Shown here: one piece after another, positions 1 through 41,691 of the stretch
How positions within the stretch are numbered: the first letter of the stretch is position 1
Layout of the letters: each line of letters begins with the position of its first letter
Virus record (IMG/VR): IMGVR_UViG_3300031983_000005
Location: 1-41,691 of that record
Direction: 5' to 3' (one strand)
Source: a virus
Length of the DNA stretch: 41,691 nt
Made by a program: the position numbers and the translations under genes
Notes under the pieces: generated by a model
Database searches by the model: none
Told to the model about the DNA's origin: nothing
Seen by the model: the letters and a program-made list of their open reading frames with translations, nothing else

Positions 1-55
1 GGCGGCCAGTCGAAAGCGATCGCGACCGCGTTGTAAAATTTTCCTTTCTCGATTT
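1..55. repeat. Terminal direct repeat, copy 1 (assembly overlap of a circular or circularly permuted genome)
   Basis: Bases 1-55 are identical to 41637-41691; unique length 41,636 bp. Confidence 0.9.
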
Positions 56-5676: not shown

Positions 5677-6603
5677 TTATTTTACTAAAAATTGGCGCGT
5701 TTTTGACGGATTGATCCACTTCTTATAAAGCGCCGGATGCGACTCTTTAAATCCGGAAGTGTTGAAGTCGGATCGATTAACCTGGTTCCATGTGATTAGC
5801 CTGGTGCCGCCGCGCTGCAATTCATTGTGGACGCCGAGCGATAATTTGAGCCGGTCTTCATAGGATTCTTTTTGCTCTGTCAGGGTTTTGATTTGAGCCT
5901 TGACGTTTTTTAATTCGATGTAATTTTGATAATCGTCGTCGGTGGCCGCTACGGGGTTGGTGTCGCGGACGGTGGCAAAGATCCGGTTTAAATCATCTTT
6001 GAGCGTGGGTTCCGGTTTGCGTTCCTTTTGAATATAGTCTTTCCAGAAGTCGGTTTCCACTTGCTGCAGGATCTTGATAAATGCGACCTCGGCTTGAATA
6101 TACCAATGTCTTAAAAACCGGTTGCCGATCAGCGCGGCCAGGTACGCCCATTTTAAGCCGGTGACCATTAAATAATGCTGAACCTGAGCATAATAATAGT
6201 CAGGAACTTCCTCGTGCCACATTTTGAAAGCAAACGGATCGACGGTTTTGATTTCGAGGATTCCTTTATCTGCAGGGGCAACATCGCCCTTAATCACTTC
6301 GCTACTTTTATAAAGATACCGATCGGGATTGCCGCCGATAAATTTTGCCTTTTCCATTGTGACGGCGCCAGGCGAATCGTCGATTGTGAGGCCGGTCCGC
6401 TCGCCGAATTCCTGCGCGATCATCGGTTCGGATAAACTGCCCCACAGTAGCCGCTCCGGATCTGCGTAGACGAATTCCTTGCCCTCGACTTTTGATTCAT
6501 AGACCTGCAGGGGCGTGAGCCAGGGATTTACTCCGAGGACGCCGCCGGCATCAGAGCCGCCTATAAATCCGCGACGCTGTTCAATTTGTTCGGTAGTGAG
6601 CAT
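5677..6603 (-). CDS. YqaJ-like viral recombinase-domain exonuclease (lambda Exo-type partner of RecT)
   Basis: Track ORF, 308 aa. The N-terminus EQRRGFIGGSDAGGVLGVNPWLTPLQVY is the YqaJ signature. Confidence 0.85.
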   Translation of the reverse strand: MLTTEQIEQRRGFIGGSDAGGVLGVNPWLTPLQVYESKVEGKEFVYADPERLLWGSLSEPMIAQEFGERTGLTIDDSPGAVTMEKAKFIGGNPDRYLYKSSEVIKGDVAPADKGILEIKTVDPFAFKMWHEEVPDYYYAQVQHYLMVTGLKWAYLAALIGNRFLRHWYIQAEVAFIKILQQVETDFWKDYIQKERKPEPTLKDDLNRIFATVRDTNPVAATDDDYQNYIELKNVKAQIKTLTEQKESYEDRLKLSLGVHNELQRGGTRLITWNQVNRSDFNTSGFKESHPALYKKWINPSKTRQFLVK

Positions 6604-6605
6604 AA

Positions 6606-6794
6606 TTAAACCGCCTTTCCTAATTTAGCGAGTTGCTTTTCAACTTCCTCGCGCGGTATGGTGATTCGGCCTTGATCAAAAAACTGGATTCCTTTCATTT
6701 TTCCCTGTTTGACCCAGACGCGGACCGTCGACGGCGTGACGCCTAATAATTTGGCGACTTCCGGAACGGTATAAGTCTTTGAAATTTGATCCAT
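6606..6794 (-). CDS. Helix-turn-helix DNA-binding protein (excisionase/MerR-like HTH_17 type); first gene of the early-left operon
   Basis: Track ORF, 62 aa. YTVPEVAKLLGVTPSTVRVWVKQGKM is a classic HTH. Confidence 0.8.
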   Translation of the reverse strand: MDQISKTYTVPEVAKLLGVTPSTVRVWVKQGKMKGIQFFDQGRITIPREEVEKQLAKLGKAV

Positions 6795-6826
6795 TTTTCT
6801 TATCCTTTCGGTTAATTGTATGCTTT

Positions 6827-6855
6827 AATATACGAAAAATGCGCAAATAAAACAA
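6827..6855 (-). promoter_or_regulatory. Sigma70-type promoter candidate for the early-left operon
   Basis: Minus-strand sense: TTGTTT (6855-6850), 17-nt spacer, TATATT (6832-6827), about 35 nt upstream of ATG 6794. Confidence 0.5.
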
Positions 6856-6878
6856 ATGCAAAATAATGCAAAAAAGAC

Positions 6879-6907
6879 TTGTATCATATACTGTTTAGTG
6901 CTATATT
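6879..6907 (+). promoter_or_regulatory. Sigma70-type promoter with extended -10 (early-right operon 1)
   Basis: TTGTAT (6879-6884), 17-nt spacer ending in TGC, TATATT (6902-6907). The promoter plus leader is near-identical to 34581-34643. Confidence 0.65.
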
Positions 6908-6940
6908 TCTATTAACCAATCACACTAAAAGGAGCCAATT

Positions 6941-7294
6941 ATGTATAATGCTGCACCAGGTTTAAATTCCTACCTCGATTCAATCGAGCGCGTCGAGCAA
7001 TTACAAATCGATGCCGAGCACGCATTCAACCTTTTAGACGACGATCAAAAAGTCGCCCAGTTAATCGAGTGGAATAGCCTCGAATCCATCACCGACGCCG
7101 CCGGTTTTATTTTCGCCAGAAAATTACAAGATCTTGATCCCGACTACCTCGAATTTTTAGAGGCCGACGAAGATTATGATTCGCTTTTCATTCTTATTAA
7201 AAAAACGGTCGGCTGCGACGAATATTTCGCCAGCGCCCTGCAGGAAAAATTCGACAAACAAATCATCGAAAAATATGAAAGAGGAGAATTTTAA
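6941..7294 (+). CDS. Strongly acidic hypothetical protein (117 aa); first early-right gene
   Basis: Track ORF. RBS is AAAGGAG. By my count it has 27 D/E against 10 K/R. Confidence 0.75.
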   Translation: MYNAAPGLNSYLDSIERVEQLQIDAEHAFNLLDDDQKVAQLIEWNSLESITDAAGFIFARKLQDLDPDYLEFLEADEDYDSLFILIKKTVGCDEYFASALQEKFDKQIIEKYERGEF

Positions 7295-8149: not shown

Positions 8150-8593
8150 TTATCGAGTGAGTGGAATCGCGAAAAAAAGTTGATGCGATTTTGTGGTTCT
8201 TGATTTGTTCGTCGTAAAAAATTGATACGAATATCCGAACGTCGGACCATATTCCCCGATCACGCCACCGACCAAACTGTTTAAAGTCAGCGCGACGCCG
8301 ACCGATAATAAGTAAGTCGATTCCTCTTGAGTGAAAATCGCTGCCGGCATGATATAAATTCCTGTTTCATAGTCGGATTCTTTCCAAAAACTATACCCTA
8401 ATCCGACCGCTCCGCCGGATAGGATATAAACCTCGCTTTCGCTCAGGTTGAACGTCGCCGGAATGATCAGCGCGTCCGCCCCATGGCTGGTATCTGGCAA
8501 AGTTTCGTCATAGAGTTCATAAACGATTGTGGTGTCCTGCGCGACCGCTGAAAGGAATAAAATCAGAATAAAAAAAATCGTTTTTGCAAACAT
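8150..8593 (-). CDS. Secreted protein with features of a small outer-membrane beta-barrel (Lom/Ail/OmpX-like moron candidate)
   Basis: Track ORF, 147 aa. Signal peptide MFAKTIFFILILFLSAVA-QD. Alternating hydrophobic strands. A GYSYQF motif resembles an OMP C-terminal signature but is followed by 23 more residues. Confidence 0.5.
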   Translation of the reverse strand: MFAKTIFFILILFLSAVAQDTTIVYELYDETLPDTSHGADALIIPATFNLSESEVYILSGGAVGLGYSFWKESDYETGIYIMPAAIFTQEESTYLLSVGVALTLNSLVGGVIGEYGPTFGYSYQFFTTNKSRTTKSHQLFFAIPLTR

Positions 8594-32073: not shown

Positions 32074-32288
32074 TTAACTTCCATCTGGTGCTGCGTGATA
32101 AACCTTGAACATTTCATCTCTTTCGCCTCGTACCCATTTCGACCAGTCTGTCGATCTCAAAACGATTAAAACCTCATTAAAATCGGTTCCCTCGATCGCG
32201 GCAAAAAGTAATTGTTCAACTGATAAATCGCCAAAATCCTCGCATTTTTTTCAAGATCCTGAACTTCTTTAATACAATCTTTAGTCAT
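32074..32288 (-). CDS. Hypothetical protein needing a -1 shift (or one extra A) in an A7 run to be read as 71 aa
   Basis: ATG 32288 overlaps the rSAM stop (ATGA). Frame 0 gives MTKDCIKEVQDLEKNARILAIYQLNNYFLPRSREPILMRF. After a -1 shift at GAAAAAAAT (32245-32251) it reads ...EKKCEDFGDLSVEQLLFAAIEGTDFNEVLIVLRSTDWSKWVRGERDEMFKVYHAAPDGS and ends at TAA 32076..32074. Confidence 0.45.
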
Positions 32289-33571
32289 ATCAAGCTCCTT
32301 TGTTTTAAAACGGTTTGTTTTTTTTGTTTTTTATCGTCATGTGGGAATGTAATATCGAGCCGGTTAAACTTTCCCCTGAGCAAGTCGCCGAGTCCGAGTT
32401 CGTCACACCGGTCAATGTAAGTTTGAAAACCGCCGTCCAGGTGTGGAAATACTTCTTTTTCCAGGACGAAAATCGCCTCAAGTTCCGCCGCGCTGCTTGC
32501 TCGCTCTTTTAGGGTTTGTTCAATTTTCGAGTACGGTTTCAGGTTATTCGATTTATAGATCCGGAGCCGGCTATTAACCCGACGCCAGTGAAATAGCACT
32601 TTCTGAAAATCGACCACCTTGATTTTTGTCAGGTCGAACCGCTCCAACGGCGTGTAAATATTCGGGTTGAAATAATTGATAATAAGATTTAAGCGTGGTT
32701 TTCTGTTTATGGAGTCCGGCTTGACGATTTTTTCCGCGAATTCGATCCACTGATCAGTGGTGTCTATGCCAGCGATAAAAAATATATTGCATTCCTTGTG
32801 ATGTTCAAGCGTTTTCTGGACGAATTCGGTGATCTCTTTATCCTTGATATGCTTTCCGAAAAAATAGCGTCCTTCCTCGGTGACTGATTCCACGCCGGCG
32901 CGAATTAAATTGAGTTTGGCATAATCGAGGGGCGCTTTATTGTATTCCTTGAGCATCACGTCGCTGACTTTTCGGCCGATATTCGATTTTGAATAATCGT
33001 TCGTGACCACGTTCAACATTTTTCCGCGCGTTTTTTCGTATGCCATTTTAAGGTGCATCGAGTTCGGGTTCCGTTGATATGAATTGATCCAACTTGTCGC
33101 GCAAAAATTACATTTGAACCGGCAGCCAGTTGACCAGAATATCCCGAACGTGTTTTTTCCGGTCTGTATCAGTGGGATCATTTCCCAATCAATAAACTGA
33201 TTAAACTCGAATTGGCCGGTTTTATCTTTATGATAAATATAGGGTTTATCCGCCAGCGCGTCGAGCGATCCGTCCAGATCTTTGAAAAACTGAAAGCCAT
33301 GACCCAGGTTGACAAGATCCGCAAATTCCGCGATCGCGAGGGGCGCGTATGTGGCATGACCGCCGGCGACGATTGGCCGGTCCGTCATTTTCCGGAGCCG
33401 TTTTATATCTTTGATTTCTGAATGGTGTGCCAGGCTGATCGTGGCAAAATCACAATCGGCCGGATCTTCGACGATTTCGTGACCGTTCTTTTTCGCGATG
33501 TGTTTGATTAATTCCTGCGTGTAAAAAGTGACTTCCTCGCGGTCGTATTTATTATAATAGTATACCTTCAT
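32285..33571 (-). CDS. Radical SAM protein with N-terminal B12-binding-like domain (class B-like)
   Basis: Track ORF, 428 aa. Has the CRFKCNFC (CxxxCxxC) cluster motif after an N-terminal Rossmann-like domain (PIVAGGHATYAPL), and later FFIAGIDT... and NYFNPNIYTPLER segments. Confidence 0.8.
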   Translation of the reverse strand: MKVYYYNKYDREEVTFYTQELIKHIAKKNGHEIVEDPADCDFATISLAHHSEIKDIKRLRKMTDRPIVAGGHATYAPLAIAEFADLVNLGHGFQFFKDLDGSLDALADKPYIYHKDKTGQFEFNQFIDWEMIPLIQTGKNTFGIFWSTGCRFKCNFCATSWINSYQRNPNSMHLKMAYEKTRGKMLNVVTNDYSKSNIGRKVSDVMLKEYNKAPLDYAKLNLIRAGVESVTEEGRYFFGKHIKDKEITEFVQKTLEHHKECNIFFIAGIDTTDQWIEFAEKIVKPDSINRKPRLNLIINYFNPNIYTPLERFDLTKIKVVDFQKVLFHWRRVNSRLRIYKSNNLKPYSKIEQTLKERASSAAELEAIFVLEKEVFPHLDGGFQTYIDRCDELGLGDLLRGKFNRLDITFPHDDKKQKKQTVLKQRSLI

Positions 33572-34202
33572 TTTTCTTGACTATCCCCATCAATTTGGTT
33601 CCAAATTCATTGTATTTCTTTTGATCGGTGTCGAATACGTCCAGTAATTTGTCGCTCAAATCGGTGATATATTCGCAAATATCCGGATCGTCTATAAAAC
33701 AAACGATATTATGGATCTGCAGCGCGAGGGCATTTCCGGCGTAAATATGCCCTTTGGCGGAATTGGCTTTCAGATCTGGGTTTTTGATGATATCGAAATT
33801 GAACATTTCTTTTAGTTCCGGACCGCTGTAAATAAAATCAGTTTTCATCTTGCCGATGATCTTTTTCATTTCCTTTTCGAGTAATCCATAATCCCAATAT
33901 GAGCGTTCACCGAGCCGATTGTCCGCAATCCGGTACGCCGTCTTGTGATCCTCTTTCATGCCTCGATGGATCACGACGGTGACGGAGCCCATCTTTAATT
34001 TTTTCGCTGCTTTTAGCGCGGTGTGTCCATACAATAAAACAAGATCCTCATCCACGCCGATCGGCCGGATGAATCCGAATTCCTTAATCGAGTCAGCAAT
34101 ATACTGGACCGCGTCGTCATTTACTCGCGGATTATCCTCGTAGGGAACGAGATCCGTGAGGACGACTTTTTTTAATTCCTGTTTGACGTCGGGGATCTTC
34201 AT
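33552..34202 (-). CDS. ParB N-terminal (ParBc) domain protein
   Basis: Track ORF, 216 aa. LVPYEDNPRVNDDAVQYIADSIKEFGFIRPIGV...LLYGHTALKAAKKL...YRIADNRL is the ParB-like nuclease-domain pattern. Its 3' end overlaps the rSAM start by 20 nt. Confidence 0.8.
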   Translation of the reverse strand: MKIPDVKQELKKVVLTDLVPYEDNPRVNDDAVQYIADSIKEFGFIRPIGVDEDLVLLYGHTALKAAKKLKMGSVTVVIHRGMKEDHKTAYRIADNRLGERSYWDYGLLEKEMKKIIGKMKTDFIYSGPELKEMFNFDIIKNPDLKANSAKGHIYAGNALALQIHNIVCFIDDPDICEYITDLSDKLLDVFDTDQKKYNEFGTKLMGIVKKNEGILL

Positions 34203-34438
34203 TTTATGAGGCCCATAAATTCAAATGCGATTTGTTTGGCCTCGGCTTTGGTTTTTGCGATCTTTGTTATTTCTTTTCCGTCCGACCATTTACTGATCAC
34301 GTACCCATTAGAAACGTGTTTGATGCTGACGTCTGTCGAGTTGGGCTGGACCGCGCGGAATACGCTGACTGCTTTTTTGATTTTGCGCTTTGGAATCTTA
34401 CCTTTTTTTGCTGGCGTTTTTACTTTTCGGGTAGCCAT
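34199..34438 (-). CDS. Small basic protein, DUF2188-like (79 aa)
   Basis: Track ORF 34199..34534 trimmed to ATG 34438, which follows GGAGGG. Sequence is MATRKVKTPAKKGK...VSNGYVISKWSDGKEITKIAKTKAEAKQIAFEF. Confidence 0.6.
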   Translation of the reverse strand: MATRKVKTPAKKGKIPKRKIKKAVSVFRAVQPNSTDVSIKHVSNGYVISKWSDGKEITKIAKTKAEAKQIAFEFMGLIK

Positions 34439-34461
34439 ATCAAAACCCTCCATTTTTCCGG

Positions 34462-34470
34462 AATATAACA
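34462..34470 (-). promoter_or_regulatory. Extended -10 promoter candidate (TGtTATATT, minus-strand sense) for the packaging/late operon
   Basis: The reverse complement of 34462-34470 is TGTTATATT, about 25 nt upstream of ATG 34438. I see no clear -35. Confidence 0.3.
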
Positions 34471-34508
34471 AATTTTTGACGGTTTTTTCGCTTTTTTTTC
34501 GATTGAAC

Positions 34509-34523
34509 GTGATAGATGGAGCG
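34509..34523 (-). promoter_or_regulatory. Conserved motif, degenerate copy e (CGCTCCATCTATCAC, 13 of 15 core positions)
   Basis: Lies in the divergent intergenic region, about 70 nt upstream of ATG 34438. Confidence 0.5.
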
Positions 34524-34580
34524 ATCGAGATCAAAAAAGTTACCGGTAAGTGTAAAAAGTGCGAAAAAAGAAAAAAAGAT

Positions 34581-34609
34581 TTGCATCATAAGGTCTTTAG
34601 TGCTATATT
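34581..34609 (+). promoter_or_regulatory. Sigma70-type promoter with extended -10 (early-right operon 2)
   Basis: TTGCAT (34581-34586), 17-nt spacer ending in TGC, TATATT (34604-34609). Near-identical to the 6879-6907 promoter and leader. Confidence 0.65.
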
Positions 34610-34640
34610 TATATCAACCAAACAGAGAAAGGCACCAATC

Positions 34641-35171
34641 ATGTTAAGTTTAAAACTTTCAGATCTTCCCGAAGGAATCGAAATTTATTATCATGGCGAT
34701 ATGGCCAACGATTCAGGGTTCGGCGTCGTGTCCGGTCATAATGTCGATAAATTCGGTCACTTTGTAAAGGTCACAATGAACGACGGCCGCCGGTTCACCT
34801 TGCCGGTGTCCAACTTTTCAAGCGAATACGCCGGAAACGGCCTCACGCGTTTCGTCACTCGCGCCGCCTATAACGATTATCAAAAAGCGTGTCAATTAAA
34901 TTTCGCCAAAACTTTCGCCAGATCCCAAAATAAAAAATTCGTCGCTGCCCTCTGCGATCATCCCAAAATGAAAGTAATCGAAAAACAGTATTTTTACACA
35001 AAAGCCGAGGCTGTCAAATGGGCTCGCGATCAAGTCGAGGGTTATTGTCAATGTTCCGATGCGATCGTTTCCGAGGAACGCGATCAAAACGGCGTTCAAT
35101 GGGTCGAATATATAGTTGAAACCGAAACCGGAATTTTAGATTTTTATGTCGAAATCCATCCAATAAATTAA
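34641..35171 (+). CDS. Hypothetical protein (176 aa)
   Basis: Track ORF 34206..35171 trimmed to ATG 34641 downstream of the promoter and RBS. The longer version is antisense read-through of the neighbouring gene. Confidence 0.7.
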   Translation: MLSLKLSDLPEGIEIYYHGDMANDSGFGVVSGHNVDKFGHFVKVTMNDGRRFTLPVSNFSSEYAGNGLTRFVTRAAYNDYQKACQLNFAKTFARSQNKKFVAALCDHPKMKVIEKQYFYTKAEAVKWARDQVEGYCQCSDAIVSEERDQNGVQWVEYIVETETGILDFYVEIHPIN

Positions 35172-37015: not shown

Positions 37016-37144
37016 ATGAATTTTAACCAACATTCAGAGGACCATTTCACGCGGTCAAAGGGAAGTTCCCTTTTTTACACCGCCCTATTTTACTTTATTT
37101 CAGCCGCGATTGTTTTTGTCCATATAATCGCGATCAATTATTAA
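37016..37144 (+). CDS. Small membrane peptide (42 aa)
   Basis: Track ORF 36857..37144 trimmed to ATG 37016 after AAAGGAAGGAAC. Sequence is MNFNQHSEDHFTRSKGSSLFYTALFYFISAAIVFVHIIAINY. Confidence 0.5.
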   Translation: MNFNQHSEDHFTRSKGSSLFYTALFYFISAAIVFVHIIAINY

Positions 37145-37154
37145 GGTGGAAAAT

Positions 37155-37316
37155 ATGGAAAATTTATATGATATTTTAATCATGATCGTCGCCCTCATTC
37201 TGCTTATTTGGCTGTTTTCCTTGCTGCATGGAATATATAAGCGACTCGGCATAATTGCAGGAATCAAACCCAAGCCACGACGCGAGGGTATGTTTGCTCC
37301 TATTCGTGAGAAATAG
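37155..37316 (+). CDS. Small membrane protein (53 aa)
   Basis: Manual ORF after AAGGTGGAAAAT: MENLYDILIMIVALILLIWLFSLLHGIYKRLGIIAGIKPKPRREGMFAPIREK. Confidence 0.5.
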   Translation: MENLYDILIMIVALILLIWLFSLLHGIYKRLGIIAGIKPKPRREGMFAPIREK

Positions 37317-37329
37317 GTAAAAAACCATA

Positions 37330-37719
37330 ATGGAAAAAAATAAATCGCTTGGTGAAATCGCATACGACAGAAAACGCAGAGGGGAAAATTTAATAAATTA
37401 CAATTATCAGAAAAACGGCAGATGTAAAATAACCGTACCAATTCCGATTGCAAAACAGGCAAATATAGAACCCGGAGTAAAAGTATTAATCTTGTGGGAT
37501 GGGGACATAAAACAATTTACAATCAGATTAATAACAGATTCAGATCAATTAAAATTTGGTTATACCGCTCAACATCGAAAAGCAGAAGGGGGTTGGCGAG
37601 TATACTTCACTTTCAAACATTACCCAAACTTACAAATGCCAAAAGCGAGTTATAGAATTTATGATTATCAAATAAGCAACGGACTTTGTTTTCTAATAAG
37701 AGGAGAGGAAAGAGGCTAA
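37330..37719 (+). CDS. Hypothetical protein with possible AbrB/SpoVT-like N-terminal segment (129 aa)
   Basis: Track ORF. KITVPIPIAKQANIEPGVKVLILW resembles the looped-hinge-helix pattern. AT-rich. Confidence 0.55.
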   Translation: MEKNKSLGEIAYDRKRRGENLINYNYQKNGRCKITVPIPIAKQANIEPGVKVLILWDGDIKQFTIRLITDSDQLKFGYTAQHRKAEGGWRVYFTFKHYPNLQMPKASYRIYDYQISNGLCFLIRGEERG

Positions 37720-38078
37720 GCGGCATTTTTAACGAGGGTTTGCCAGCGTAGTATTTGAAGCGCTCTGAATCCTTCTGAATTCGTCAATAAATTTACCACA
37801 TCTTGAGCCGTCGCGACTATATAAACGACGGCTTTTTGCTTTGAATTCCAGGCGATTTCCTCGTCCGTTAATTTTTGCGCGCTCTTGCATTTCTCGCCGT
37901 CCTTAATCTCGATCATAAACCATTCATTCCGATAACTGACCACAATATCAACAAAGCCGTCACCGACGCCGCTGGTTACAGTGACGGCCGCCCCAAAATC
38001 CCGGAATGCCTTGACAATATCCTTTTGATTGCTGTCGGTATTTCCGTGTTTTCTCAATCGGTGATCCTCCGAATCCAC
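37716..38078 (-). CDS. PD-(D/E)XK nuclease, VRR-NUC / Hjc-like (resolvase candidate); GTG start
   Basis: Track ORF, 120 aa. GFVDIVVSYRNEWFMIEIKDG provides the D...E.K catalytic pattern. Confidence 0.6.
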   Translation of the reverse strand: MDSEDHRLRKHGNTDSNQKDIVKAFRDFGAAVTVTSGVGDGFVDIVVSYRNEWFMIEIKDGEKCKSAQKLTDEEIAWNSKQKAVVYIVATAQDVVNLLTNSEGFRALQILRWQTLVKNAA

Positions 38079-38548
38079 GAATATAAATATTTCCGGCGCG
38101 TCTTATTTCTGGCCAGTTTTCTATAATAGCAAAGCCGCAAATAATTATAATAAGCCGCCAGCGGTTTCGCCTCAATCGCTTTCACTCGCTGCAGCGAATA
38201 GCGACCGATAATTCCGTCTATTACCAGGGGTGTGAACGGCGATTTATTGAGCGCGTTCGCGGCAATTTGAAGATATTTCGACGCTCTCCGGACGCCGGCA
38301 TTTACCGCAAAATCAAAAACGGTGTGAGCTAGATCTTGATCCCGTATATCAGCGCAACCGGACCGGTTTCAGTAATCGCGCCAGTATATATTGCGGACCT
38401 GTCGATCGGTTATATTTGGGATATCCAGATCCGGATAAGCACGTTTTGAGATCCCGAAATTCGTTTCGCCGCCTGGGTCGTCCGGATCGTTGACATACCC
38501 GCCCTCAAAAACGAGCGTCTTTTTAAGTGCCTGGTTAAAATTCGCCAT
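38054..38548 (-). CDS. GH108-type lysozyme (endolysin) with PG_binding_3-like C-terminus, interrupted by one in-frame TGA
   Basis: Manual translation, absent from the ORF track: MANFNQALKKTLVFEGGYVNDPDDPGGETNFGISKRAY...RNIYWRDY-TGA-NRSGCADIRDQDLAHTVFDFAVNAGVRRASKYLQ...VIDGIIGRYSLQRVKA...SWIRRITD. The EGGY catalytic motif and FDxAVNxG are present. Confidence 0.8.
38369..38371 (-). other. In-frame TGA inside the endolysin gene, at the position of the family-conserved Trp
   Basis: Plus strand reads tca at 38369-38371. It is flanked by TAC (Tyr) and AAC (Asn) codons in the lysin frame. Confidence 0.85.
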
Positions 38549-38557
38549 AAATGCCGC

Positions 38558-38971
38558 CTAAAATTCGAGCATCAAAACCTTGAATTTACCCTTTGAAATG
38601 CTGGCCGGTGGCTTTGCCCTGAAATATTCGCCGACTGTATCACTCGGCGCGCTTTCATAACTGAATAAACTATCGATCGGGGCGTAAATATCCGGCCCGT
38701 TGTATTGCACCGCCGTCGCGAAAAAATCGCGCTCAATAAAACTATAAAGCGAATCAAGCGCCCACAAATCGAATTGCAACGCGTTCGCCGCCGTCGTGTC
38801 CAGTATCCCGAATGACGTGTCCGCGGCGCTTTTTTGATAAATAATAATATGGATCGTGCTGTCTGGGTATGGTGTAAAATCATAATCCCACATCAGCAAA
38901 CGCGGCGCCAGATTTTGAGCGCATCCGGTCACCGCGAGAATTAAAATAAATAAAAGGATTAAAGTTTTCAT
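38558..38971 (-). CDS. Lipoprotein (137 aa)
   Basis: Track ORF. Signal peptide with lipobox (LILAVTGC). Located immediately upstream of the lysin gene. Confidence 0.7.
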   Translation of the reverse strand: MKTLILLFILILAVTGCAQNLAPRLLMWDYDFTPYPDSTIHIIIYQKSAADTSFGILDTTAANALQFDLWALDSLYSFIERDFFATAVQYNGPDIYAPIDSLFSYESAPSDTVGEYFRAKPPASISKGKFKVLMLEF

Positions 38972-39318
38972 TTTGGAGCCCCTTTTTTTATGAATATATA
39001 CTTAAAAAACAATTCATGAAAGATTAAAATTTCGACCGGTAGCGCTGGCAGCCACAAATAAACCGGCATCCCACTTTTGCAAAATAATACGATCGACGTG
39101 ACGATGAATAATTGTTTCAGTTTTTTGGCGTCGTGCCAGGCATCTCTTCCGAAAATCTTCCGGTACCAGGGAAGTTTTTGATAATCCGTTGCCAGCCTCC
39201 AATAATTAGTGGCCGGAAAAATCATAATATGCCGGTGGAATAAAACAGTGTCCATAACGGCGTCGAGAATGTAAGCAACGCCGAATGATACCAATCCAAA
39301 AACATAGAGCCAGATCAT
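38968..39318 (-). CDS. Integral membrane protein (116 aa)
   Basis: Track ORF 38968..39366 trimmed to ATG 39318 (MIWLYVFGLVSFGVAYIL...), which directly follows the stop of the zinc-ribbon gene. Several TM segments. Confidence 0.6.
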   Translation of the reverse strand: MIWLYVFGLVSFGVAYILDAVMDTVLFHRHIMIFPATNYWRLATDYQKLPWYRKIFGRDAWHDAKKLKQLFIVTSIVLFCKSGMPVYLWLPALPVEILIFHELFFKYIFIKKGAPK

Positions 39319-39320
39319 TT

Positions 39321-39506
39321 TTACTTCTTTTGAATTATTGGTGATATTTTTAGGGGTGCTCCGCAATGGCTGCAGCGGAACCGGAAAAGCCGTTCATTCC
39401 GCCAGAGCCGGCCTTTACATTTATAGCATGGATAATTGATAAGCCGGAACGGCGTTTGATATTCGACCGGTATCGTAAAATTATAGTGGAGTTCGGCCGG
39501 TATCAT
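39321..39506 (-). CDS. Zinc-ribbon protein (61 aa)
   Basis: Track ORF 39321..39584 trimmed to ATG 39506 (ATGA overlap with the upstream stop). Sequence is MIPAELHYNF...CYKC...CSHC. Confidence 0.55.
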   Translation of the reverse strand: MIPAELHYNFTIPVEYQTPFRLINYPCYKCKGRLWRNERLFRFRCSHCGAPLKISPIIQKK

Positions 39507-39799
39507 AAAAGCGCCCAGATTAAAAATCGAACAAGCGCCAGGCCAGCGATCGCGCCGACCATATTCGCACCCATATCTTCCCAAAATTCGGTCGGATCTT
39601 TATCCCTGTCGACGACTTCGTTTATATAGCCGATCGCCATGACCGTCAAAAATGATAAAACGGCGGTCCAGGCGAAGATCTGTCCGAGCCATTTAGTATA
39701 TAAGCCAAAGAATAGGATCGCGAGGATTGTCGCGAGCCATAAATGCCAGGGAAAGCCCCAGTTCTTTTTTGTCAGATTGCGAAAAAATTTAACGATCAT
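39503..39799 (-). CDS. Integral membrane protein (98 aa), holin candidate by position
   Basis: Track ORF. RBS is AAAGGTGG. About 3 TM segments. First gene of the membrane/lysin cassette. Confidence 0.6.
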   Translation of the reverse strand: MIVKFFRNLTKKNWGFPWHLWLATILAILFFGLYTKWLGQIFAWTAVLSFLTVMAIGYINEVVDRDKDPTEFWEDMGANMVGAIAGLALVRFLIWALL

Positions 39800-41611: not shown

Positions 41612-41691
41612 TCAGAATTCTTTGCCCTCGGGTGCCGGCGGCCAGTCGAAAGCGATCGCGACCGCGTTGTAAAATTTTCCTTTCTCGATTT
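41612..41691 (-). CDS. 3' end of the junction-spanning ORF (same gene as 1..503)
   Basis: Same frame through the 55-bp overlap; ends ...AFDWPPAPEGKEF then TGA at 41614..41612. Confidence 0.6.
   Translation of the reverse strand, partial: IEKGKFYNAVAIAFDWPPAPEGKEF
41637..41691. repeat. Terminal direct repeat, copy 2
   Basis: Exact copy of bases 1-55. Confidence 0.9.

Follow-up and report, generated by a model that had tools for sequence, protein, structure and literature searches.

A predicted GH108 endolysin gene interrupted by a single opal codon at a conserved tryptophan in an environmental tailed-phage genome

The IMG/VR virus record IMGVR_UViG_3300031983_000005 comprises 41,691 nucleotides, all of which were analysed (hereafter the window). 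Its minus strand carries a gene that is predicted to encode a two-domain endolysin of glycoside hydrolase family 108 (GH108) and that is interrupted by one in-frame TGA at the position of an invariant tryptophan. The reading frame starts at the ATG at 38548..38546, runs for 59 codons to the TGA at 38371..38369, continues in the same frame for 104 codons and ends at the TGA at 38056..38054, exactly as it had been translated in the original prediction, which was made from the sequence alone. When the internal TGA is counted as Trp60 the gene has 164 codons, distributed as follows.

38372..38548, minus strand: lysin codons 1-59, the N-terminal GH108 part, with the EGGY motif and the putative catalytic Glu15
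38369..38371, minus strand: opal TGA in place of the Trp60 codon, in the context UAC UGA AAC; the plus strand has T at 38369, where C is the ancestral base
38054..38368, minus strand: lysin codons 61-164 and the terminator TGA, covering the rest of GH108 (FDFAVNAG) and PG_binding_3, with no further stop

When the stop is translated as Trp, the resulting 164-residue protein matches PF05838 (Glyco_hydro_108; E 1.8e-24) over residues 9-85, corresponding to model positions 2-85 of 85, and PF09374 (PG_binding_3; E 2.5e-6) over residues 90-162. The scores, 86.5 and 28.0 bits, lie above the gathering cut-offs of 21.2 and 24.6 bits, respectively. These data uphold the initial assignment of the product as a GH108 lysozyme with a PG_binding_3 C-terminus, and the gene is accordingly classified by homology as a GH108 plus PG_binding_3 endolysin, a predicted muramidase. 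The 59-residue N-terminal fragment alone also matches PF05838 (E 1.7e-14), at model positions 2-60 of 85; it lacks GH108 model positions 61-85 and any PG_binding_3. As the full product spans model positions 2-85 and the fragment only 2-60, the stop falls within the catalytic domain, and the uninterrupted frame over both domains expected of an endolysin of this type is broken at codon 60. The predicted protein displays no N-terminal hydrophobic segment which, together with the established model of phage lysis, suggests that it would be a canonical cytoplasmic endolysin requiring a holin.

GH108/PG_binding_3 lysins are exemplified by gp61 of phage N4. The same two-domain architecture and a length of ∼160 residues are shared by the window protein and by GH108 plus PG_binding_3 muramidases such as Neisseria NMB1012 (PDB 2IKB and 2IS5) and the Salmonella TtsA-type enzymes (6V3Z and 6V40). 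The motifs EGGY (with Glu15), PGGxTNxGI and FDxAVNxG are common to the window protein and these muramidases, and the invariant columns are all kept. The window gene differs from all of the GH108 members examined in that its frame is broken by a TGA at the invariant Trp60.

Ways around the stop at the level of the gene itself were considered and rejected. Re-initiation would not yield a useful C-terminal fragment, as the earliest in-frame start downstream of the stop, a GTG at 38185 (residue 122), would give a product of merely 43 residues. A frameshift bypass is not needed, as homology carries on in frame 0. No overlapping open reading frame (ORF) of at least 50 codons was found at the mutated base in the other frames or strands. 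A 13-nucleotide palindrome, AACCGG-T-CCGGTT, lies directly 3' of the in-frame TGA (38356-38368, minus strand) and is missing in the closest relative; it might bear on strand-specific sequencing error, or represent a cluster of restriction or methylation sites (CCGG, ACCGGT).

The original prediction had proposed that the stop occupies the TGG codon of a conserved Trp, and the comparison with homologues bears this out. In an alignment with the 120 best homologues drawn from 5.8 billion protein clusters, the stop column is Trp in 120 of 120 sequences; the Glu15 of the EGGY motif is Glu in 119. A local tblastn comparison of 80 IMG/VR loci and the closest relative (n=81) likewise returned Trp at this column in 81/81 loci, all of whose lysin frames are free of in-frame stops, and NMB1012 (PDB 2IKB) also has Trp here. 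All 22 columns that are invariant in an alignment of 30 sequences (A1) are kept in the window protein, on both sides of the stop. The closest relative, designated L001 (Logan SRR28147574; 83% amino-acid identity), reads GAC TAT TGG AAT where the window reads GAT TAC TGA AAC. Two further relatives, L141 and L142, display the same lysin-endonuclease gene order as the window, and both have TGG at codon 60. Since these three relatives have TGG, and all 81 loci have Trp, the change from TGG to TGA, a plus-strand C to T transition at 38369, is on comparative evidence private to the window genome.

The mosaic relative L142 (ENA ERZ26661968, positions 1-1748, corresponding to window 37081-38871) carries a lipoprotein gene that is 96% identical to that of the window at the nucleotide level, followed by an additional gene of 77 codons, an intact but divergent GH108 lysin (56% amino-acid identity) and the endonuclease gene (83%). 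The lysin locus therefore appears, from this arrangement, to be a point of module exchange. Relatives reached through other proteins are more distant, the best matches being 53% identical for the capsid protein, in IMG/VR, and 61% identical for the terminase (L143, 61%; L144, 57%). The L143 and L144 genomes (41.3 and 42.0 kb) are family-level relatives that keep the endonuclease, ParB-like and head genes. No GH108 gene was found within 10 kb of the terminase in either, and their lysin would thus lie elsewhere or belong to another type. A blastn search against GenBank phages gave just one 56-nucleotide match at chance level, and the capsid relatives in genome contigs, only 37-39% identical (Alphaproteobacteria and an Anaerolineales metagenome-assembled genome), are uninformative with respect to the host. 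Positions 1-19 of the L001 contig are an untrimmed Nextera mosaic-end adapter (AGATGTGTATAAGAGACAG).

The conservation of the gene beyond the stop indicates the age of the mutation. Against L001 the ratio of non-synonymous to synonymous substitution rates (dN/dS) is 0.147 before the stop (codons 1-59) and 0.111 after it (codons 61-164), with dS at about 0.5 to 1.3, and the alignment contains no indels and no further stops. These values indicate that purifying selection has acted on the codons after the stop throughout essentially the whole divergence of the two lineages. It follows that either the stop arose very recently or these codons are still being translated. The dN/dS of 0.11 after the stop, together with the lack of indels, excludes an old pseudogene.

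The mutated base is recorded twice, in the 41,691-bp JGI/IMG contig that constitutes the window and in the Logan contig SRR1964816_1262 (41,666 bp), both of which encode the 59-residue truncated product. Across 20 kb, TGA included, the Logan locus and the window do not differ (100% identity), although both assemblies probably derive from one read set. The truncated product forms a singleton cluster from one sample only. No intact allele of the same lysin was present among the 5.8 billion protein clusters, where the best match is 83% identical, and exact-pattern scans of viral and metagenome contig collections, with TGR specified at codon 60, found no DNA that was identical or nearly so. Window positions 1-55 and 41637-41691 are an exact 55-bp terminal direct repeat; the assembly is therefore circular, with 41,636 unique bases.

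The phage uses the standard genetic code, in agreement with the original view that the stop does not reflect genome-wide code 4. In 50 confidently delimited genes Trp is encoded by TGG 165 times and by in-frame TGA not once, so that a single one of 166 Trp positions, that in the lysin, has TGA. TGA terminates at least ten genes; the six terminators listed at the outset (1317, 1623, 32285, 38054, 39503 and 40262) were all verified, and four more were found (24486, 31422, 38968 and 41311). Several of the TGA-ending genes display ATGA start/stop overlaps of the type typical of translational coupling. One of these is inside the lysis cassette, directly upstream of the lysin, at the junction between a gene for a protein with two transmembrane segments and a lipoprotein gene. 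Proteins that end on TGA, such as the head-tail adaptor, are full length against their profiles, and when TGA was treated as a sense codon, no more than one or two of the ten longest stop-to-stop frames grew, and these slightly. TGG/TGA usage, the ATGA overlaps and the full-length profile matches rule out genome-wide code 4 or code 25. The GC content of the window is 44.9%, and Shine-Dalgarno-like motifs precede 39 of the 50 genes.

Dedicated recoding elements were also sought. The tRNA search that accompanied the original prediction as a proposed check was, for the phage, carried out with ARAGORN and found no tRNA gene in the window, hence no phage-borne suppressor tRNA. No release factor or tryptophanyl-tRNA synthetase (TrpRS) family was found among the window proteins in scans with PHROGs and Pfam. 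Across the window Rfam returned no match, and the region 38000-38700 gave none even at E≤1. The predicted fold 3' of the stop is no better than that of shuffled sequences (z +0.89), while a small hairpin across the stop is marginal (z −1.68). Selenocysteine recoding was rejected as no selenocysteine insertion sequence or other Rfam match occurs in 38000-38700 at E≤1, the downstream fold is unremarkable and the column is Trp, never Cys, in homologues.

A recognisable lysis cassette on the minus strand ends with the lysin and is followed by an endonuclease-like gene. The neighbouring genes are listed below.

39503..39799, minus strand: 98-residue protein with three hydrophobic segments by hydropathy, a class I holin-like candidate; ends on TGA; no family match
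38968..39366, minus strand: 132-residue membrane protein with two hydrophobic segments by hydropathy, a member of the lysis cassette; ends on TGA; no family match
38558..38971, minus strand: 137-residue predicted lipoprotein with a signal peptide and the lipobox LAVTG|C (MKTLILLFILILAVTG|C); no PHROG or Pfam match
37716..38078, minus strand: 120-residue endonuclease-like gene (phrog_93, E 9.6e-5), the start of which overlaps the end of the lysin

Multi-spanning membrane proteins and a lipoprotein beside a soluble endolysin are the hallmark of Gram-negative holin-endolysin-spanin cassettes, and the window gene has such neighbours as judged by hydropathy and the lipobox, from which the roles of the proteins are inferred. 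The 132-residue protein, which has homologues upstream of the L141 and L001 lysins, may be a holin, an antiholin or an inner-membrane spanin. The lipoprotein, whose ATG overlaps the TGA stop of the gene upstream (ATGA) and whose own end is followed 9 nucleotides downstream by the start of the lysin, is a candidate outer-membrane spanin-like component. The endonuclease-like gene accompanies the lysin in L001, L141 and L142 too, as a conserved syntenic neighbour. The rest of the genome is that of a normal tailed phage, encoding RecE/RecT, an O-like replication protein, Dam, a ParB-like protein, terminase, an SPP1-type portal, MuF and scaffold, as well as major capsid, adaptor, tail completion and tape-measure proteins.

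Every ORF, including one of 175 codons that spans the junction of the circular sequence, was scanned with PHROGs and/or Pfam. No second lysin family was found in any window ORF, consistent with the proposal that this is the only recognisable lysin, and no integrase was detected by the same scans. As many ORFs lack annotation, the lysin is 'sole' within detection limits only. As the genome closes as a circle and no integrase was found, the data argue against a decaying integrated prophage. The junction-spanning ORF is intact at positions 6410-6937 of a second sequence (L002) and has no PHROG match.

On balance, we favour the view that the lysin carries a very recent, lineage-specific opal nonsense mutation which may leak as a low-dose lysin, and which represents neither recoding nor a programmed signal. 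A single G to A nonsense change on the coding strand, one of the two readings put forward originally, fits all of the data, and the TGG codons of L001, L141 and L142 support its being confined to the window genome. Events of this kind, opal nonsense alleles, are known, the GH108 endolysin affected here being new; an ordinary recent mutation, seen in one sample, is most likely. The C to T change at plus-strand position 38369 would have converted the invariant Trp60 codon TGG into the opal codon TGA. Release factor 2 (RF2) would then end most ribosomes at 59 residues, giving a fragment without a third of the catalytic domain and without the whole wall-binding domain, and full-length enzyme would arise only when the ordinary tRNA-Trp (anticodon CCA) misreads UGA. 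As the residue lost was Trp, such readthrough would restore the wild-type protein. We infer that readthrough in the host would occur at a level sufficient for lysis, the timing of which would still be set by the upstream holin candidate. A passive leak of UGA as Trp is plausible, as is a low-dose (hypomorphic) allele rather than a strict null. A hypomorphic allele would account for a complete, circular and apparently non-integrating genome dominating a sample.

This view is consistent with published data on UGA. In Escherichia coli UGA is the leakiest stop and is mostly replaced by Trp, with readthrough of up to 14% reported (PMC11126739), and at the coat stop of phage Qbeta Trp is inserted about once in 15 times (PMC8067240). 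The Qbeta stop lies in the context UAU UGA ACA and that of the window in UAC UGA AAC, Tyr-UGA-A being common to both. If the opal codon in the only endolysin is indeed the majority genotype of a phage that still propagates, it would represent a natural case in which the intrinsic leakiness of UGA buffers a nonsense mutation, TGG to TGA being the one nonsense change that is exactly repaired by misreading. Such a case would further illustrate how an isolated in-frame stop can survive for long enough to give rise to stop-codon recoding. The locus additionally calls for caution in annotation pipelines, as ORF callers see only the 59-residue fragment and the genome appears to be without a lysin.

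Several points weigh against a leaky allele. The allele is known here from assembly consensus only. The match to Qbeta comprises only a few bases, and the Tyr before the stop is ancestral in the family, where it is part of a DYW motif. In addition, A follows 5 of the 10 genuine TGA terminators in the window, such that the context at the stop may not be special here. The leak values for E. coli K-12 reflect a weak RF2 (PMC11126739), and leakage may differ in the phage host. In E. coli, a toxic endolysin gene of a Salmonella phage could be cloned once a single TGG had been changed to TGA (PMC5102678), and the leak can therefore be functionally small. Finally, ∼60% of the ORFs are without annotation and a compensating lysin could have been missed.

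The strongest competitor to a leaky opal allele, although we regard it as unlikely, is a strict null, in which the opal codon eliminates the lysin, leaving a dead-end or conditionally defective genome variant that dominates one sample by chance. Classical conditional-lethal nonsense mutants exist in phage lysin genes, such as lambda R and T4 e. These mutants, like the engineered SPN9CC lysin, which also carries one TGG to TGA change (PMC5102678), resemble the window allele in that function hangs on the suppression or leak of a single endolysin nonsense codon; they are, however, laboratory constructs or selected mutants, whereas the window allele is an environmental assembly consensus. A null genome might persist briefly through co-infecting wild-type phage, in a carrier or pseudolysogenic state, or following a recent origin in a bloom. 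This view is consistent with a very recent mutation whose allele is a singleton from one sample, with the detoxification of an endolysin gene in E. coli by one TGA (PMC5102678), and with the absence of GH108 model positions 61-85 and all of PG_binding_3 from the 59-residue product. It is harder to reconcile with a complete circular genome in two assemblies, where no competing allele breaks the contig, with the lack of an integrase or recognisable lysogeny module to shelter a lysis-null genome, and with the intrinsic leakiness of UGA, which would reinsert Trp.

It is also possible, though improbable, that the base is an artefact of sequencing or assembly, the true codon being TGG and the TGA arising from systematic read error or from a minor variant picked by the assemblers. 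Inverted repeats can provoke strand-specific Illumina errors, and the base adjoins the 13-nucleotide palindrome. Furthermore, C to T is the commonest damage-type change, and the JGI/IMG and Logan SRR1964816 assemblies probably share reads. Conversely, two assemblers (with k=55-style and k=31-style overlaps) agree on the base and its flanks across 20 kb, and Illumina assemblies with coverage sufficient to close a circular genome seldom contain substitution errors in their consensus. Little weight is thus given to an artefact, or to a mixed population, at 38369.

An alternative that we consider very doubtful is that the phage has an unrecognised second lysin, or another lysis route, rendering the GH108 enzyme dispensable and the mutation a first step in pseudogenisation. 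Most ORFs lack a family assignment, and the absence of GH108 within 10 kb of the terminase in L143 and L144, which keep the endonuclease, suggests that this group can use other lysins or locations; the L142 arrangement suggests that the lysin locus is a point of module swapping. However, PHROGs and Pfam cover known lysin families well and returned none in any ORF, no ORF of unknown function is common to the window and L143/L144 in a lysis-like position, and the gene is undecayed apart from one codon.

Programmed or regulatory readthrough, the second of the readings originally put forward, would require that the UGA is selected to throttle or gate lysin synthesis, by leakiness or through a suppressor tRNA from the host or a co-infecting phage. 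Were the TGA maintained in this manner, lysin would be made only via misreading by tRNA-Trp or an outside suppressor, its dose would track the translational state of the cell, and the codon would be a one-codon first step toward the TGA to Trp recoding of lysis genes in gut phages; we consider both the readthrough and this scenario highly improbable. The location of the stop at a Trp codon, in a lysis cassette and in a Qbeta-like Tyr-UGA-A context, is in keeping with such a view, as is the preference of recoded phages for recoded stops in lysis and structural genes, TGA to Trp being one of the two reassignments (10.1101/2021.08.26.457843). Nevertheless, TGA occurs in none of the 81 loci and none of the three syntenic relatives, and within the window it stands at just one of 166 Trp positions, with no counterpart in structural genes. 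As a terminator TGA shows no depletion (10 genes), nor is the GC content low. No suppressor tRNA, release factor, TrpRS or stimulatory RNA structure was found in the window, and efficient UGA suppression would add 50 residues to the holin-like protein and 25 to the lysin. The original suggestion of a link between UGA readthrough or suppression and the dose or timing of lysis is therefore not supported, as the TGA is private, is accompanied by no tRNA, Rfam element or 3' structure, and lies in a context that may not be special. In the canonical holin-endolysin model the timing of lysis is set by the holin and not by lysin abundance, and a 'timing device' is thus mechanistically weak.

Known recoding systems differ from the window in the same respects. 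In Qbeta a Tyr codon, UGA and A are also found at the end of the coat gene, and host tRNA-Trp inserts Trp to give the A1 readthrough protein. The Qbeta stop is conserved, however, both products are functional and the long product is essential, whereas the window stop is private to one genome (the codon is TGG in L001, L141 and L142), interrupts a domain and yields a short product that is almost certainly useless. Borges et al. (10.1101/2021.08.26.457843) described recoding of TGA to Trp or TAG to Gln with many in-frame stops, mainly within genes encoding structural and lysis proteins, in low-GC genomes in which the recoded stop is depleted as a terminator and suppressor tRNAs, release factor 1 (RF1) or TrpRS are frequent. 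The window resembles these and other recoded phages (Peters et al. PMC9523058) in having a TGA at a Trp position in a lysis gene, and early genes in the standard code. In contrast to such phages it has one such codon and not many, none of them in structural genes, many of its genes end on TGA, its GC content is not low, and neither a suppressor tRNA nor RF1 or TrpRS was found; with respect to the number and location of TGA codons, terminator depletion with low GC, and suppressor machinery the window does not resemble a code 4-like recoded phage.

The least credible explanation is that the host decodes UGA efficiently as Trp, through code 4 or a tRNA-Trp variant, making the codon effectively silent: although tRNA-Trp(CCA) variants with a 4-bp anticodon stem that read UGA occur in diverse bacteria (PMC13092985), TGA ends at least 10 genes, some ATGA-coupled and some encoding homology-complete proteins, Trp is TGG in 165 of 166 positions, the wall-less Mollicutes that are the main code-4 hosts would need neither a muramidase nor a lipoprotein-containing cassette, and a GC content of 44.9% with Shine-Dalgarno-like motifs at 39/50 genes also speaks against this explanation.

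Other features of the window were observed during the analysis. An imperfect repeat of 99 nucleotides (77% identity) occurs at 6850-6948 and 34554-34647, in or beside intergenic regions between divergently transcribed blocks. One copy adjoins a helix-turn-helix/excisionase-like gene and the other the ParB-side block, and the repeat may represent a shared promoter or operator region. At 8150-8593 (minus strand), the distal end of the tail module, a 147-residue protein with a clear N-terminal signal peptide and no family match could be a secreted or moron-type gene product. A 428-residue protein encoded at 32285-33571 (minus strand), between the ParB-like and small terminase genes, gave sub-threshold radical-SAM matches only (PF19864, E 2e-4), and is conserved at 45% amino-acid identity in the same position in L143. 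A small ORF beside the ParB-like gene (34199-34534, minus strand) has homologues in L143 and L144 that lie directly after the major capsid gene; the different neighbours indicate that this gene has been relocated between relatives.

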